DNA of 64,000 nt from Dictyostelium discoideum (GCA_000004695.1 CM000153.2:160001-224000); one strand, 5' to 3'. Counted from the first letter of the stretch, positions 52,423 to 57,094 are shown. Made by a program: numbers and translations. Notes: a model not told the origin generated them from the sequence alone.

Positions 52423-52500
<78 letters not shown>
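52359..52500. repeat. (TAAA)n tetranucleotide microsatellite
   Basis: More than 30 aaat/aaata units, with one interruption at 52394-52408. Confidence 0.9.
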
Positions 52501-52501
<1 letters not shown>

Positions 52502-53308
52502 GGGGAAAAAAAAAATGAAAAAGACTTCAATATATAATATCTCTGTTTATTTTATTTTATTTTTTTTATTTTATTTTAAGGTGCTTTTTTAAAAAAAAGT
52601 GACTGAAAAAAAAAAAAAAATTTGGAACCTTGGTCGTTGGAAAAAAAAAAAAAAGTAGAAAATAAAAAAAAAAATAAAAAAAAAAAAAAAAATAAAAATA
52701 AAAAATTGGGTTGGTTTGCAACGATCATAAAAAATAGTTTTTTTCACATAAAAAACATCTGATATTTATTTTTTTTTTTTTTTTTTAAAAATGAGAAAAA
52801 AAAAAAAGTTTAAATATGGTCCCTAATCTCATTTTGATCATGTTTTTTTAAAAAAAAAAATATCTTTTTTTTTTTTTTTTTTACAATAATCAAATATTTG
52901 TTGATGTGTTAAATTATTGCGTCTCTTCATTCAAACCACAATCTCCTTTTTATTATAATAACAATCATAAAAAAGATATGTTTTATTATTTTTTTTTTAA
53001 TGTTTTTTTTTTTTTATTGTTTTTTTTTTTACGATTATTTTGTCTTTTGAGGGAAAAAAAAAATAAAAAATAAAAAAAAAAATAAATATCAGATATTTTT
53101 TTTTTTTTTTTTTTAAATGATTATAAAGATATTATTTTTTGTAGTGGGTTAAAATTTTTTATTTTAAAATAAAAATAGTTTGGTAAGTGGCTTTGAAAGG
53201 ATATAATTTAAATTTAGCTTTCATTTTTACCATTTAATCAAATTTGGAGAAAATATTAAAATAAATTCAATCTTTTTTTCTTATTAAAATTGATTTTTTT
53301 TTGAAAAT

Positions 53309-53343
<35 letters not shown>

Positions 53344-53400
53344 AATAAATAAATAACTCACAAATAAAAATAGTTGTCAAACTAAAAAAAAAAAAAACCT
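52500..53400. repeat. Dispersed duplicated intergenic blocks (copy 1). Copy 2 lies at 56080-56710
   Basis: At least four sub-blocks recur 75-90% identical and in the same order and orientation. aggggaaaaaaaaaatgaaaaagacttcaata... (52501-52610) matches 56155-56260. ttgttgatgtg...cattcaaaccacaatctcctttttattataataacaatcataaaaaagatatgttttattat... (52900-53070) matches 56400-56550. tagtttggtaagtggctttgaaagga...tttagctttcatttttaccatttaatcaaatttggagaaaatattaaaataaattcaatc (53170-53275) matches 56610-56715. aaatagttgtcaaactaaaaa (53370-53395) matches 56088-56110. The two copies flank the B-box/FNIP gene. Confidence 0.7.
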
Positions 53401-53452
53401 AAAAATTAATCAATTACAATAACAAGGTATTTTATTAATTGTTGTCGGTCTG

Positions 53453-53493
<41 letters not shown>

Positions 53494-54572
53494 CAATTAA
53501 AATTATTGTAAATTTATAATATTATTTATTTCAATTTTATTATATTAAATTGAGTGTTTTAAAACCCTTATCCTTTTTCTGATAAAATTTTTTTTTTTTG
53601 AATATCCTTCAAATTTTAATATTTCTTTCTTTATTTAATTTTTTATTTTTTTATGTGTTTATTTATTGGTATTTTACCTTTATCCAATTTTGGATAAAAA
53701 GTGTCTTTTTAATTATCTTTATCCAAGCCATATTTTTTTTTTTTTTTATTATCCAATGGATATCCTTTTTTTTTTAAAGCTATTGTTAGTACTTTAAAGA
53801 TATTTGCAATTGTTTTTTTTTTCTGTGTGATAGTATTTGTTCAATTGAATATATTGAAACAAATAATAAAGATGAATATTATATTATTTGAAAAGAAATA
53901 GTGGATTTGTATTTTTTATTAACTTCATTATCATCATCATTATCATAATCATAATCATAATATTGTTGATTTTATAAATATAATTAAAAATTTTAATTTA
54001 AATATATATTAAAAAAAGATTGATGAATATTAAAAAAAAAAAAAAAAAAAAAACTATTGTGTTAACATAACATTTAAATTTATTTTGATAATTTTATTAA
54101 ATTAAAAAAAAAGTTTAATAAATAAAAAAAAAAAAAAAAAAAAAAACTATTGACTTTTTTTGATTTTTTAATTCCTTTTGACGAATTTTGAATAGTCATC
54201 ATAATATTTTTTATTTTCTTTAATACAATGACATCATCATCTTCTCGTTCTTTTTAATTTTAGTATGTCTTCAAAGATTTTTTTTTTTTCCCACCTAAAT
54301 ATCTTAAAAAAATTTTATTCTGTTTCCATTTTTTTTTTTTTTCCCACCTATATATCCTAAAACATTTTTAGTTGGATTCCATTAATTTTTTTTTTTTTTT
54401 TTTTTTTTTAACTTACTTTTTTAGGAACCTGGGAAAAGAAAAGAAATAAAAAAAAATAAAATTAAATATTTTGAGATATTTAAAAAATGAACATTATGGT
54501 TTTTTTTTTCATTTTTAATTTCTAAATTTTTTTTTTTTCTTTATTCCTATTTAAAAAATTCTCAAACACACA

Positions 54573-55986
54573 ATGGATAATTTATTGTATTATAAATATG
54601 ACAACAAATGTGAAACTCATAAAGAGCACGACATTAAATTGATTTGTTCAACATGTAAGGTATGTAATTATAGTAACAAATATTTCCACCCCCTCTCTTT
54701 AAATAAAAAGTGATTCATTCTTACACTCATTTTTGTATGATGATTATTATAAATATTTAAAATAATTAGGTAGTAGTATGTGTTGAATGTATTGTTTCAG
54801 AGCATACTGGTCATAAACTTGATAAAATAGATGCAGAGAACTGTAAAGCTTTCTTTGAAGAATTTAAAAATAATCACTTTCATAATTTAGAAAAACAAGT
54901 TGATGTCAATAAATATCTATTAATTCAATCATATAATTTATTTAAATCATTAGAAGATAAACACACTGAAAATGTAAATACAATCACAGAAGAATTTAAA
55001 GAACTCTCCAAACAATTATCAACCATTGAAAGTGATAAAATCAAACAATTAACCTCAATCTATGGCGAAAATAAAGATATCAAGGAAAACGTTTCAAACA
55101 CTATAAAAGATAATTTAAAAAATATTAATTTAATTAGAAATAAATATAAAAATACAATAAATCAAATTAATATTGATCAAATCATTAATAATAATAGTTA
55201 CACTAATAGTTATCAACATATTGAAATCTTAAAACATTGTTGTCAATCACAAGTTTTAACAAATGAAAACGTACTCAAGGATTTAATGAATCAATATAAA
55301 AATGTAACTATTGTAAATAATAGTGAACAAGTTAAAAGTTCAGCAAAAGAAATATTTGAAATTAGAGATTCTCTCTCCAACTCAAATATTGCATTTGACG
55401 ATTCTTTCTCTATCTCAAATGTAAAGGACCCAATAAGATATACTGGTAAATATCCCCATTGTCTATTTTAATATTATAATAATATTAGGAGGTTATTAAT
55501 ATTAAATTATTTATATATTTATATATAGCTGGAGGAGTTAAATATTTTATTTATACAGATGATTGTGTCGTTCCAAAAGGTACTACTCATGTGGCTATTG
55601 CACCAAGTGTTAAAACAATCAAAATTGGTTCAATTCCAACATCAGTTGAATATTTGGCCTTACTTGATGGATTCAATGTTCCACTAACAGAAGGTATGCT
55701 ACCAAAAACAATTGAATATCTATTTATTGGTGCAATTAAAAAACCAATATTAAAAGGTTCAATTCCAGATGGTATTAGATATGTGTATTTATTAGATGGA
55801 TTTAATCAAGCAATAAGTGAATTACCACCATCAATTAAACAATTATTACTTTTTGATACTCCTTTAACAAATTTCGGATCATACGCAGGTCCAATTTTTA
55901 AAAGTCCAAAATATAAACAACAACTCACTTGCCCAGGTGTGGTCGATTGGAATGGTAATGGTTGGGAGTTTAAAGCTGAATTTTAA
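54573..55986 (+). CDS. B-box zinc finger plus coiled-coil plus FNIP-repeat protein, about 406 aa. Three exons: 54573..54659, 54770..55445 and 55529..55986
   Basis: The B-box is CETHKEHDIKLICSTCK|gtatgt / VVVCVECIVSEHTGHKLDKID. A coiled-coil region follows (…NLFKSLEDKHTENVNTITEEFKELSKQLSTIESDKIKQL...). Then the donor ACT G|gtaaat and the acceptor tatatag give AGGVKYFIYTDDCVVPKGTTHVAIAPSVKTIKIGSIPTSVEYLALLDGFNVPLTEGMLPKTIEYLFIG...GSIPDGIRYVYLLDGFNQAISELPPSIKQLLLFD (FNIP repeats). Confidence 0.7.
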
Positions 55987-57094
55987 GTGGATTCACAAAA
56001 AAATTATTAATTATAAAATAATAACAAAACATCATCATCATCATCATCATTAAATAAATCCATTATTTCATTTTCCAATACTTCAAAAAATAGTTGTCAA
56101 ACTAAAAATGAGATTTGTTTTTTTGTTTTTTTTTTTAATAAATAAATAAATAAGGGGGAGAAAAAAATGAAAAAGACTTCAATAAATAAATACTCTATCC
56201 GTTTATTTTATTTTTTTATTATATTTTTAGGTGTTTTTAAAAAAAAGCGAAAAAAAAAAAAAAAAAAAAAAATAAAATTATCGATCCTCGTTTTGATAAT
56301 TATTTTTTTTTTTTTAAAATGAAAATCACACAAAAATCATTTTATTTTTTAAAAAAAAAAAATATCTATTTTTTTTTTTACAATAAATAATTAAATATTT
56401 GTTGATGTGCCTTTTCATTCAAACCACAATCTCCTTTTTATTATAATAACAACCATAAAAAAGATATGTTTTATTATTTTTTTTTTTTTGTTTATTTTTT
56501 TATATTTTTTTTTTTTAGTTATGATTAATTTGTCTTTTGAGAGAAAAAAAAAAAAAAAAAAAAAATATCAGAATGATTATAAAGATATTATTTTTTGTAA
56601 AATTAAAATAGTTTGGTAAGCCACTCCTTTGAAGTACATTATTTAAATTTAGCTTTCACGTTTACATTTAATCAAATTTGGAGAAAATATTAATTTAAAA
56701 TAAATTTGATCTTGTTTACTATTAAATTTTTTTTTTTTTTTTTTTTTTTTGAAAATAATAAAAAAAAGATAGAATTTATTTAAATAAATAATTCATACAA
56801 TGATTTTAAATATTAATCATTGCAAAATTAATATTCTTTCTTTTAAAATAATTTATTTATTTTTTATTTTTTTTTTTTTTAATTTTTTTTATTATTTTTG
56901 GCGCTTTTTTATTTACAAGAAAAAATAAGAAAGCTTGAAAATTTTTTTTTTTTTTTTTTTAATTTCATTTCTATATATTATTATTTTTTTATTTTTTTAT
57001 TTTTTTTATTTTTTTATTTTTTTTATTTTTTTATTTTTTTATCATTCTTTATTATTTTTTATTCTTTATAAAAAAAAAAAAAAAAAAAAAAAAA

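Follow-up and report, generated by a model that had tools for sequence, protein, structure and literature searches.

Replication template switching (FoSTeS/MMBIR), described in other eukaryotes, offers one parallel to the locus analysed here: a direct duplication of about 1 kb with DNA of another locus at or near its junction, loss of target sequence (about 108 nt in our case) and junctions in short similar sequences. It differs from our locus in three respects. The mechanism here is deduced from the end product, and two steps would explain that product just as well; age and low complexity prevent a confident reading of microhomology at the junctions; and the inserted DNA is a complete gene unit that looks expressed, not a short templated stretch. 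A second parallel is dispersed duplication from a tandem array, since a full unit of the chromosome 3 array, introns, upstream DNA and 3' flank included, occupies a new position on chromosome 4. Here, however, the insert amounts to exactly one period of the array and one boundary repeat (23–36 nt), and the target duplication is far longer than usual target-site duplications.

Two further systems bear on the function of the duplicated DNA. In the DDC model of cis-regulatory duplication and degeneration, as at this locus, one copy is conserved and the other sheds conserved elements, some of the losses being complementary. Unlike the model, it is a shared spacer that has been duplicated here and not a gene with its regulatory DNA, one copy falls to each flanking gene by position, and plain decay of copy 2 is better supported than true partitioning. 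The class I RNAs and other small RNA genes of Dictyostelium are likewise short islands of mixed sequence in AT-rich spacers, conserved among dictyostelids. The islands described below differ from them in having no Rfam match, DUSE, 11-nt motif or conserved stem, and in being freely lost from copy 2.

With a probability of roughly 0.8, we read the locus as an ordinary lineage-specific duplication of the spacer between DD3-3 and Nipped-B together with the insertion of a gene from chromosome 3, the islands most likely being conserved regulatory elements.

The locus and the genomes compared

The window, a stretch of 64,000 nucleotides, is part of chromosome 4 of Dictyostelium discoideum and carries, in this order, DD3-3 (minus strand), the B-box/FNIP gene DDB_G0283097 (plus strand) and Nipped-B (plus strand). 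It was compared within a set of ten genomes (eleven assemblies), the window included. These included the D. discoideum strains L001, L003 and L004; L005, "D. cf. discoideum" ACTFIY; and five sequences with a single block, namely L006 and L011 (D. citrinum), L007 (D. dimigraforme), L008 (D. firmibasis) and L010 ("D. cf. discoideum" ACTFIZ). The alignments are noisy, the DNA being very AT-rich with many homopolymer runs. The identity of Nipped-B rests on Pfam matches of the ORF at 58899–62582 to Nipped-B_C (4.9e-28) and Cohesin_HEAT (1.3e-12), and a gene of about 2050 aa is called at this position in related assemblies. Two FNIP genes elsewhere in the window (46705–48093 and 48398–49741) are 97.8% identical to each other. 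The features referred to below are:

50212–52062, minus strand: DD3-3 (DDB_G0283095), left flank, reading away from the blocks; 616-aa ORF, an exact sequence match to the named DD3-3/DDB_G0283095
52063–52391, no strand assigned: P1, single-copy spacer adjoining DD3-3, with the conserved motif ACTTACATTTTTGGGATG (52325–52342) and the start of an (AAAT)n microsatellite
52392–53365, plus strand: copy 1 of the ancestral spacer (unit 1), collinear with copy 2 and with the single block of L006, L007, L008, L010 and L011; (AAAT)n, island A (~52500–52610), U1 (52706–52728), U2 (52808–52842), B1/B2 (52898–52962), B3 (53039–53057), B4 (53118–53143), C1/C2 (53206–53255) and a tail to ~53365
53366–56108, plus strand: X, inserted 2.7-kb segment consisting of D1, 1.18 kb of upstream DNA, the gene, its 3' flank and D2; absent in L006, L007, L008, L010 and L011
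53366–53388, plus strand: D1, left boundary repeat of X (AAAAATAGTTGTCAAACTAAAAA), an exact 23-mer found again at 56086–56108
54573–55986, plus strand: B-box/FNIP gene DDB_G0283097; exons 54573–54659, 54770–55445 and 55529–55986; 406 aa
56086–56108, plus strand: D2, right boundary repeat of X, 100 nt past the stop codon of DDB_G0283097
56109–56136, plus strand: junction of the units, probable relic of the unit 1 tail; TGAGATTTG and a T-run
56137–56815, plus strand: copy 2 of the spacer (unit 2), defined by blastn matches and collinear with copy 1; short (AAAT)n, island A (56150–56250), B1/B2 (56399–56450), B3 (56529–56547), B4 (56574–56599), C1/C2 (56641–56689) and a tail
56816–56964, plus strand: P2a, rest of unit 2, present once in single-copy genomes; D-like ancestral sequence (56806–56830), putative E2F-like site TTTGGCGC (56897–56904), and ACAAGAAAAAATAAGAAAGCTTGAAAA followed by a T-run and AATT
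57095–62582 and running past 62582, plus strand: Nipped-B/Scc2 (cohesin loader), right flanking gene

Two copies of an ancestral spacer

Copy 1 (~52406–53365) and copy 2 (~56137–56815) are collinear direct repeats on the same strand. With the low-complexity filter on, blastn aligned 52843–53360 to 56345–56795 at 74% identity including gaps, or about 88% over aligned bases (E 6e-99), and 52485–52620 to 56137–56268 at 85% (E 9e-37). The copies have 51 distinct 12-mers with at least three G/C in common, against a mean of 0.04 and a maximum of 3 in 1000 first-order Markov surrogates, and any other 722-nt stretch of the window reaches at most two. The G+C content of the blocks, 13–15%, gives them the same AT-richness as ordinary spacer DNA.

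The first-pass annotation had described duplicated non-coding blocks in the same orientation on both sides of the B-box/FNIP gene, and these are real. Their homology is wider than it had given, starting in an (AAAT)n/T-run at ~52392–52406 in copy 1 and ~56109–56137 in copy 2 and ending at ~53365 and ~56815, respectively. Of the four ordered sub-blocks that it had listed on each side, the fourth corresponds to the 23-nt boundary repeat of the insert. The motif AAATAGTTGTCAAACTAAAAA lies at the 3' end of copy 1 (53368–53388) but 5' of copy 2 (56088–56108); it is not collinear with the other blocks and is part of the inserted gene segment instead of the duplicated spacer. Deletions have made copy 2 about 250 nt shorter than copy 1, and both U1 and U2 have been deleted from it.

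In all five single-block sequences (L006, L007, L008, L010 and L011) DD3-3 and Nipped-B are direct divergent neighbours, 1.3–1.7 kb apart, with one block and no B-box/FNIP gene between them. Positions 163–1252 of L006, for example, align to 52268–53243 of the window and positions 1389–1569 to 56828–57020. P1 has one alignment to the single-copy outgroup spacers, and nothing corresponding to it lies near copy 2. D. discoideum L001, L003 and L004 carry both copies together with the gene, and L005 has both copies with a decayed B-box/FNIP gene. The gene is therefore a newcomer around which the spacer was duplicated, and what the blocks represent is the ancestral intergenic (promoter) region. Its duplication in the D. 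discoideum lineage was direct, covered about 0.8–1.1 kb of spacer and took place in the common ancestor of D. discoideum and the "D. cf. discoideum" ACTFIY lineage.

In a neighbour-joining tree the copy 1 clade and the copy 2 clade are sisters to the exclusion of D. citrinum, D. dimigraforme and D. firmibasis. L010 is placed outside both copy clades in 43% of bootstraps, and its empty site could in principle result from a later collapse of the duplication. None of the ten genomes (eleven assemblies) has the duplication without the insert. In D. purpureum, which has a different neighbouring gene, no part of the blocks is conserved.

The inserted segment

Segment X is a single period of the B-box/FNIP tandem array on chromosome 3, reaching from the 3' flank of one member (D1) to the same point in the flank of the next (D2). 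Its gene has an open frame of 406 aa after splicing, clusters at 90% with DDB_G0283097 and has recorded Pfam domains zf-B_box and FNIP. Over a stretch that begins about 60–70 nt ahead of the ATG and ends about 90 nt past the stop codon, the DNA is 74–79% identical to five paralogs of the chromosome 3 array. At the left end of the insert, D1 and the roughly 100 nt to its right correspond to the 3' flank of one of these paralogs: BLAST aligns 53395–53491 to L009 13672–13766 at 82.7% identity, and this paralog has a D-like motif 108 nt past its stop codon. The D1 23-mer was not found in any single-copy genome. Within the 21 kb of chromosome 3 array examined, window positions 53500–54500, part of the ~1.1 kb between D1 and the gene, had no match, and the donor unit was not found there.

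The nearest paralogs of DDB_G0283097, with 65–67% protein identity, come from D. discoideum and "D. cf. discoideum", and the homologs from D. citrinum and D. dimigraforme are 53–58% identical. Since introns and flanks are kept in X, copying was DNA-mediated and not by retroposition. The D2 repeat is longer in L003, where it reaches TTCTACTTCAAAAAATAGTTGT.AAACTAAAAA and matches D1 of L005. At the junction between X and copy 2, L005 retains AAATAAGCTTGAAA followed by a T-run and AATT, which is a second copy of the sequence at 56925–56964 and thus a repeat of the P2a tail. For the window itself, 56109–56136 is probably a relic of the same unit 1 tail.

Conservation and decay of the two copies

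The two copies have fared differently. Copy 1 retains 84–89% of the G/C columns conserved across species, against 42–56% in copy 2 (56% in copy 2 of the window), and ancestral columns are missing from copy 1 at 8–15% and from copy 2 at 32–43% (32% in the window). In Tajima relative-rate tests, unique changes were 2–4 times more numerous in copy 2 (p values between 0.047 and 4e-7). Furthermore, divergence between strains is 5.5–6.5% for copy 1 and 10.7–12.1% for copy 2, the upstream DNA of the insert diverging by 10.6–13.2%.

Islands A, B1, B2, B3, B4 and C1 have kept their order, and each is found in at least two of L006, L007, L008, L010 and L011, only A being present in all five. B2 occurs in L006, L007, L008 and L011; in L010 it is diverged and lies inside a small inversion. 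Island C2 is found in none of these five. A conserved regulatory cassette was among three explanations offered by the first-pass annotation, and it is the one that fits best, the islands being conserved as single copies in D. citrinum, D. dimigraforme and D. firmibasis. The description applies mainly to copy 1, however, as copy 2 is decaying. The conservation patterns suggest that the islands may be cis-regulatory or 5'-UTR elements of an old bidirectional promoter region. Copy 1, still joined to DD3-3, would then stay under constraint and hold the old promoter function, and copy 2 would be largely redundant and eroding.

The consensus for E2F sites is TTTSGCGC. The E2F-like sequence TTTGGCGC at 56897 occurs once in 52063–57094 and three times in the whole 64 kb. 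Nipped-B would depend on the single-copy proximal part that carries this predicted site. Nipped-B is in the list of RblA-repressed S-phase genes of D. discoideum (PMC3386910), which fits the conservation of TTTGGCGC at this position.

Alternatively, both copies could be functional, the old bidirectional promoter having been split so that DD3-3 is served by copy 1, and Nipped-B or the new gene's 3' end by copy 2, each copy having shed the elements that it did not need. The losses are indeed partly complementary. U1 and U2 are kept in copy 1 and gone from copy 2. The ancestral piece CGAGGTATAAAAATCATTTTAT, retained in L010, L006 and L008, has been lost from copy 1, and copy 2 keeps AAAAATCATTTTAT of it, a sequence found only in copy 2 and the single-copy genomes. 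Some division of labour between the copies may therefore persist. In each of the three D. discoideum genomes examined (the window, L003 and L004), copy 2 also still has islands B2, B4 and C2 in nearly intact form. On the other hand, copy 2 diverges at the rate of the presumably unconstrained upstream DNA of the insert, and its losses vary by lineage: L005 is without B1 and B2, L003 is without C1, and L003 and L004 both lack the GGGG...ATGAAAAAGACTTC part of island A. This resembles random decay and not the keeping of a defined subset of elements, and we regard such a partition of the promoter as distinctly unlikely.

Other explanations for the blocks

A tandem duplication of the block together with the B-box/FNIP gene, followed by deletion of the second gene, would account for the direct orientation of the copies in a region prone to tandem gene duplication, as the FNIP pair illustrates. 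The block without a gene in five related genomes speaks against it, since there was then no ancestral block-gene unit, as does the ancestral Nipped-B-proximal sequence that follows copy 2 in unbroken order. No coding relic was seen in the blocks when 95 ORFs of the window were used in tblastn (the best result was a 15-aa match, E 0.009), and the B-box protein matches only its own gene. The earlier suggestion of a segmental duplication that once carried a second gene copy is thus right as to the duplication, with no sign of a lost gene, and the tandem scenario is very improbable.

Small non-coding RNA genes in two copies, whether class I RNA, snoRNA or some new type, are an equally improbable reading of the islands. 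RNA genes had also been put forward earlier, and in their favour the islands are conserved across species and stand out from their AT-rich background. Rfam gave nothing at the gathering score over the window and nothing at E ≤ 1 over 52063–57094, and no tRNA was found. Class I RNA genes have a DUSE, [AT]CCCA[CT]AA, about 60 nt upstream and carry the 11-nt motif CCTTACAGCAA; both are absent from either strand of 52063–57094. Of the boxes of a C/D snoRNA, box C (RTGATGA) occurs in neither copy, and the CTGA (box D) sites are not common to the copies. Folding energies are no better than those of shuffled sequences, with z-scores between -1.4 and +1.65 that disagree between the copies (for block C on the plus strand, -1.42 in copy 1 and +1.65 in copy 2). 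Structure prediction on the aligned copies, a check proposed along with the RNA suggestion, gave no support either: RNAalifold on eight sequences found zero pairs for block C on both strands and for block B on the plus strand, and elsewhere only weak A-U hairpins, in block B on the minus strand (-4.0 kcal/mol) and in block A (-1.5 and -3.1 kcal/mol). A search of 283 kb of Dictyostelium DNA, 21 kb of it from chromosome 3, found no further occurrence of the seven islands, and copy 2 has shed islands freely. The first-pass annotation had reported no ORF of 60 aa or more common to the two copies, and none is shared in the same frame. Nothing indicates that the blocks encode RNAs or proteins.

A mobile element (MITE, solo LTR or other repeat) that landed on either side of the gene is barely credible as the source of the blocks, even with two similar non-coding copies in direct orientation, given the single block at the same site in every related genome examined, the lack of another copy in the 283 kb or the rest of the 64-kb window, inverted repeats that are only A/T runs (70–81% complementary) and not terminal ones, and a G+C content like that of ordinary spacer, Dictyostelium transposons being less AT-rich than these blocks.

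Origin of the arrangement and its implications

In the favoured reading, the duplicated unit would begin at the T-run/(AAAT)n and end at the T-run in the part next to Nipped-B, an extent supported by the second copy of the P2a tail in L005, and the insert would have displaced about 108 nt of unit 1, including the unit 1 copy of the E2F-like TTTGGCGC site. The arrangement may have arisen in a single replication template-switching event, which duplicated the spacer and placed a templated insertion at the junction, or by two successive steps, a tandem duplication between T-run/AAT repeats and then the insertion. Similar short sequences do occur at the junctions (T-run/AAT repeats and, in the target, a D-like sequence), which at this AT-richness may be due to chance. 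A simple target-site duplication, in which the target abuts the insert on both sides and none of it is lost, is not what was found: a relic of the unit 1 tail, clear in L005, lies between the insert and copy 2, and ~108 nt, TTTGGCGC among them, are missing from unit 1.

A more specific version is possible, though we consider it unlikely. One template-switching event would have copied exactly one unit of the chromosome 3 array into the bidirectional promoter of DD3-3 and Nipped-B and re-replicated about 1 kb of that promoter, so that each of the old genes kept a full upstream region, and the copies would now be in the course of being partitioned between the flanking genes. If this were true, the locus would be a dated natural experiment on which conserved islands serve which gene, with the empty site (ACTFIZ), the intact arrangement (D. 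discoideum) and the arrangement with a decayed gene (ACTFIY) as the states for comparison.

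Locus and neighbouring genes

The repeated blocks on either side of the B-box/FNIP gene are an ordinary lineage-specific duplication of the DD3-3/Nipped-B spacer, linked with the arrival of an inserted gene whose paralogs form a tandem array. The locus is made up as follows:

50212-52062, minus strand: ORF of DD3-3 (DDB_G0283095)
52392-53365: copy 1 of the duplicated spacer (unit 1), on the DD3-3 side
53366-56108: insert, bounded by the 23-mers D1 (53366-53388) and D2 (56086-56108)
54573-55986, plus strand: B-box/FNIP gene, three exons, 406 aa, in the same 90% cluster as DDB_G0283097
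56137-56815: copy 2 (unit 2), the unit running on to about 56964
57095 (start), plus strand: Nipped-B, a large gene with Nipped-B_C and Cohesin_HEAT domains

The identities of DD3-3, the DDB_G0283097-cluster gene and Nipped-B therefore place the window on chromosome 4 of D. discoideum. A search of the literature on DD3-3 and on B-box/FNIP genes found nothing about this locus.

Several other features of the window were recorded. Three tandem FNIP-repeat genes occupy 45098-49741; 46705-48093 and 48398-49741 share 97.8% DNA identity and the third is about 82% identical, and the number of these genes varies from 2 to more than 6 across strains and species. As far as about window position 42073, the D. 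discoideum assembly ACTFIT (L001) agrees with the window at 99.8%. Past this point L001 carries, at 19946-21851, a 1596-aa ORF with endonuclease and reverse-transcriptase domains and no match in the window. The segment is an inserted non-LTR retrotransposon by which the two genomes differ. A 501-aa ORF at 39920-41425 (minus strand) has no Pfam match, and is found in a less AT-rich stretch (29% G+C) with a strong G-over-C skew.

Reality and extent of the repeat

The region of interest is so AT-rich (13-15% G+C) that loose alignment yields only noise. Loosely scored blastn without low-complexity filtering produced spurious A/T matches by the hundred, and significance was judged by a k-mer statistic. 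With the filter on, 52843-53360 and 56345-56795 are 74% identical including gaps and about 88% identical over aligned bases (E 6e-99), and a second match links 52485-52620 to 56137-56268 at 85% identity. The two copies have 51 distinct 12-mers with at least three G/C in common, against a mean of 0.04 in 1000 Markov surrogates; other stretches of the window have at most two in common. The duplication flanking the B-box/FNIP gene, as proposed in the first-pass annotation, is thus real. Global alignment of the copies gives one ordered run of common islands, broken by insertions and deletions, and no further copy of the blocks was found in the rest of the 64 kb or in 283 kb of collected Dictyostelium DNA. 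The same annotation had stated that the copies share no ORF of 60 aa or more, and no ORF is indeed common to them in the same frame. A short ORF from ATGAAAAAGACTTCA in island A, one of the non-AT sub-blocks, was rejected, as its ATG or frame is lost in the alignment with D. dimigraforme (L007) and D. firmibasis (L008).

The left edge of the duplication falls inside an (AAAT)n microsatellite (52358-52501, 36 units, broken by GGG and a T-run), which is found at the same position in every species examined and varies in length alone. At the junction between insert and copy 2, the “D. cf. discoideum” genome ACTFIY (L005) carries AAATAAGCTTGAAA, a T-run and AATT, which repeats the sequence at 56925-56964 beside Nipped-B. 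The duplicated unit would therefore have begun at the T-run/(AAAT)n and ended at the T-run in the part of the spacer next to Nipped-B. Just TGAGATTTG and a T-run are left at this junction in D. discoideum (56109-56136). We infer that about 108 nt of unit 1, including its E2F-like TTTGGCGC site, were replaced by the insert.

Comparison with related genomes

Orthologous loci were fetched using the DD3-3 ORF and B-box/FNIP proteins (homology, cluster members) as anchors. The comparison covered other D. discoideum assemblies (L001, L003, L004), ACTFIY and a further “D. cf. discoideum” genome, ACTFIZ (L010), D. citrinum (L006, L011), D. dimigraforme (L007), D. firmibasis (L008) and D. purpureum (L012). 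In D. citrinum, D. dimigraforme, D. firmibasis and ACTFIZ, DD3-3 and Nipped-B are divergent direct neighbours with a spacer of 1344-1655 bp, and no B-box/FNIP gene is present between them. These single-copy spacers give one alignment to copy 1 and then pass into window sequence 3' of copy 2, exemplified by L006, where 163-1252 corresponds to window 52268-53243 and 1389-1569 to window 56828-57020. Both copies and the gene are present in every D. discoideum assembly examined. ACTFIY also has both copies, and its gene lacks the equivalent of 53634-54822. Here (spacer 1422-2300) the promoter, exon 1 and part of exon 2 are gone and the annotation is reduced to an FNIP fragment of 122 aa; the ACTFIY lineage can therefore do without the gene. 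D. purpureum was uninformative: the neighbouring gene differs and there are no recognisable islands.

In a neighbour-joining tree of the blocks, all copy 1 sequences form a clade whose sister is the clade of all copy 2 sequences, and the blocks of D. citrinum, D. dimigraforme and D. firmibasis branch outside this pair. The duplication therefore occurred after the split from these three species and before D. discoideum and ACTFIY separated. The single block of ACTFIZ falls outside both copies in 43% of bootstraps. It might in principle represent a collapse through recombination between two copies, but this is the less likely explanation, as pieces missing specifically from every copy 1 and others missing specifically from every copy 2 are present next to each other in ACTFIZ. 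This favours ACTFIZ as an empty site that was never duplicated. In the same spacer, 36 nt of island B (ATTATTGCGTCTCTTCATGAAAACCACAATCTCCAT) are inverted (994-1029 in window orientation), and sit between the short inverted repeats GTTAAA and TTTAAC.

Origin of the inserted segment

Between about 60-70 nt 5' of its ATG and about 90 nt 3' of its stop, the inserted gene has 74-79% DNA identity to five members of a tandem B-box/FNIP array on chromosome 3 (L009). Next to D1 on the right, the stretch 53395-53491 shares 82.7% identity with the 3' flank of a member of this array. The same member carries a D-like motif 108 nt past its stop, and D2 is located 100 nt past the stop of the window gene. The boundary repeat can be traced over about 36 nt in L005 and L003. 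Together, the flank matches and the pattern of D identify 53366-56108 as one array period, from a point in the 3' flank of one member to the same point of the next, and the insert was copied as DNA, introns included. The first-pass annotation had counted four ordered sub-blocks on each side. Its motif AAATAGTTGTCAAACTAAAAA is an exact repeat, but it lies 3' of copy 1 and 5' of copy 2 and is not a collinear fourth block; D is the boundary repeat of the array-derived insert and not part of the duplicated spacer.

D1 and D2 are identical only in the genome of the window and differ at 2-3 positions in other strains, which suggests a small gene conversion between them in the strain of the window. 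In L003 and L005, D1 reads AAATAGTTG(C/T)CAAATTAATAA. D was also considered as a target-site duplication, and this was rejected because it is absent from all empty sites, resembles the 3' flank of the chromosome 3 paralog and differs between D1 and D2 elsewhere. A simple long target-site duplication was likewise rejected, since in L005 the insert is followed by part of the tail of unit 1. Among all ten genomes (eleven assemblies, including the window), duplication and insert are either both present or both absent; they could have arisen in one complex event or in two.

Upstream of the inserted gene (53560-53775, 54011-54189, 54277-54397) there are clustered TTATCC/GGATAA motifs, 1.9 copies of a 93-nt unit and 2.2 copies of a 53-nt unit (TTTCCCACCTAAATATC...), which may serve as promoter elements for this gene.

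Evolution of copy 1 and copy 2

Divergence and retention in the two copies
Measure: copy 1; copy 2
Mismatches, window vs L003/L004: 5.5-6.5%; 10.7-12.1%
Ancestral columns missing: 8-15%; 32-43%
Conserved G/C columns kept: 84-89%; 42-56%

Copy 1 is the conservative copy. By the same mismatch measure, the upstream DNA of the insert differs by 10.6-13.2% and the exons of DDB_G0283097 by 3.4-5.0%. Unique substitutions are 2-4 times more numerous in copy 2, with ACTFIZ or D. citrinum as outgroup (p 0.047 to 4e-7), and the losses from copy 2 are not the same across lineages. Copy 2 appears to be drifting. A limited division of labour between the copies might be considered in addition, as one ancestral piece lost from copy 1 is still held by copy 2. 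Between the window and L003 and L004 (ACTFIW, ACTFIR), protein identity is 92% for DDB_G0283097 and 98% for DD3-3; the low value among assemblies labelled D. discoideum reflects either a fast-evolving gene or deeply diverged strains.

RNA and regulatory potential

The suggestion that the blocks form a family of small non-coding RNA genes is not supported. No tRNA was found, Rfam gave no match at gathering score or at E<=1, and DUSE, the class I RNA motif and box C are all absent. The blocks fold no more stably than shuffled sequences do, and the two copies give inconsistent energies. With RNAalifold on eight sequences, both strands of block C and the plus strand of block B are left without pairs, and the only predictions are weak A-U hairpins for block A and the minus strand of block B. 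Comparison of the blocks with the proteins of the window revealed no similarity.

Judged from their sequence conservation, the non-AT islands are probably pieces of the old bidirectional upstream region of DD3-3 and Nipped-B. After the rearrangement, copy 1 would have stayed with DD3-3, still under constraint, and Nipped-B would have been left with the single-copy proximal part of the spacer. This part contains the E2F-like TTTGGCGC (56897-56904), followed by ATTTACAAGAAAA, about 190 nt 5' of the Nipped-B start codon. The site is conserved across species, being also present in L003, L004, L005, L007, L008 and L010, and occurs three times in the 64 kb. Nipped-B is included in a list of RblA-repressed S-phase genes (PMC3386910), and the conserved E2F-like site would fit with this.

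The element ACTTACATTTTTGGGATG (52325-52342) is kept in all related genomes. On the DD3-3 strand it reads CATCCCAAAAAT/GTAAGT, the slash marking the junction of a sequence resembling a 5' splice site, so that DD3-3 may begin with a short non-coding exon followed by an intron in its 5'-UTR.

Implications

The history of the structure is well resolved, and it is not a new kind of element. An odd-looking repeat is accounted for without new RNA genes. The result is of modest practical value; it is useful for annotation and as a small natural experiment on promoter DNA. DDB_G0283097 reached chromosome 4 only once the lineage had separated from D. citrinum, D. dimigraforme and D. firmibasis, and its source was the chromosome 3 array, from which an entire unit was copied as DNA. 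The copy 1 islands, being conserved among species as well as among strains, provide a short list of candidate DD3-3 regulatory elements, with copy 2 and the empty-site genome as built-in controls. The locus is an example of the fast-evolving B-box/FNIP family spreading while the promoters of its neighbours are left intact.
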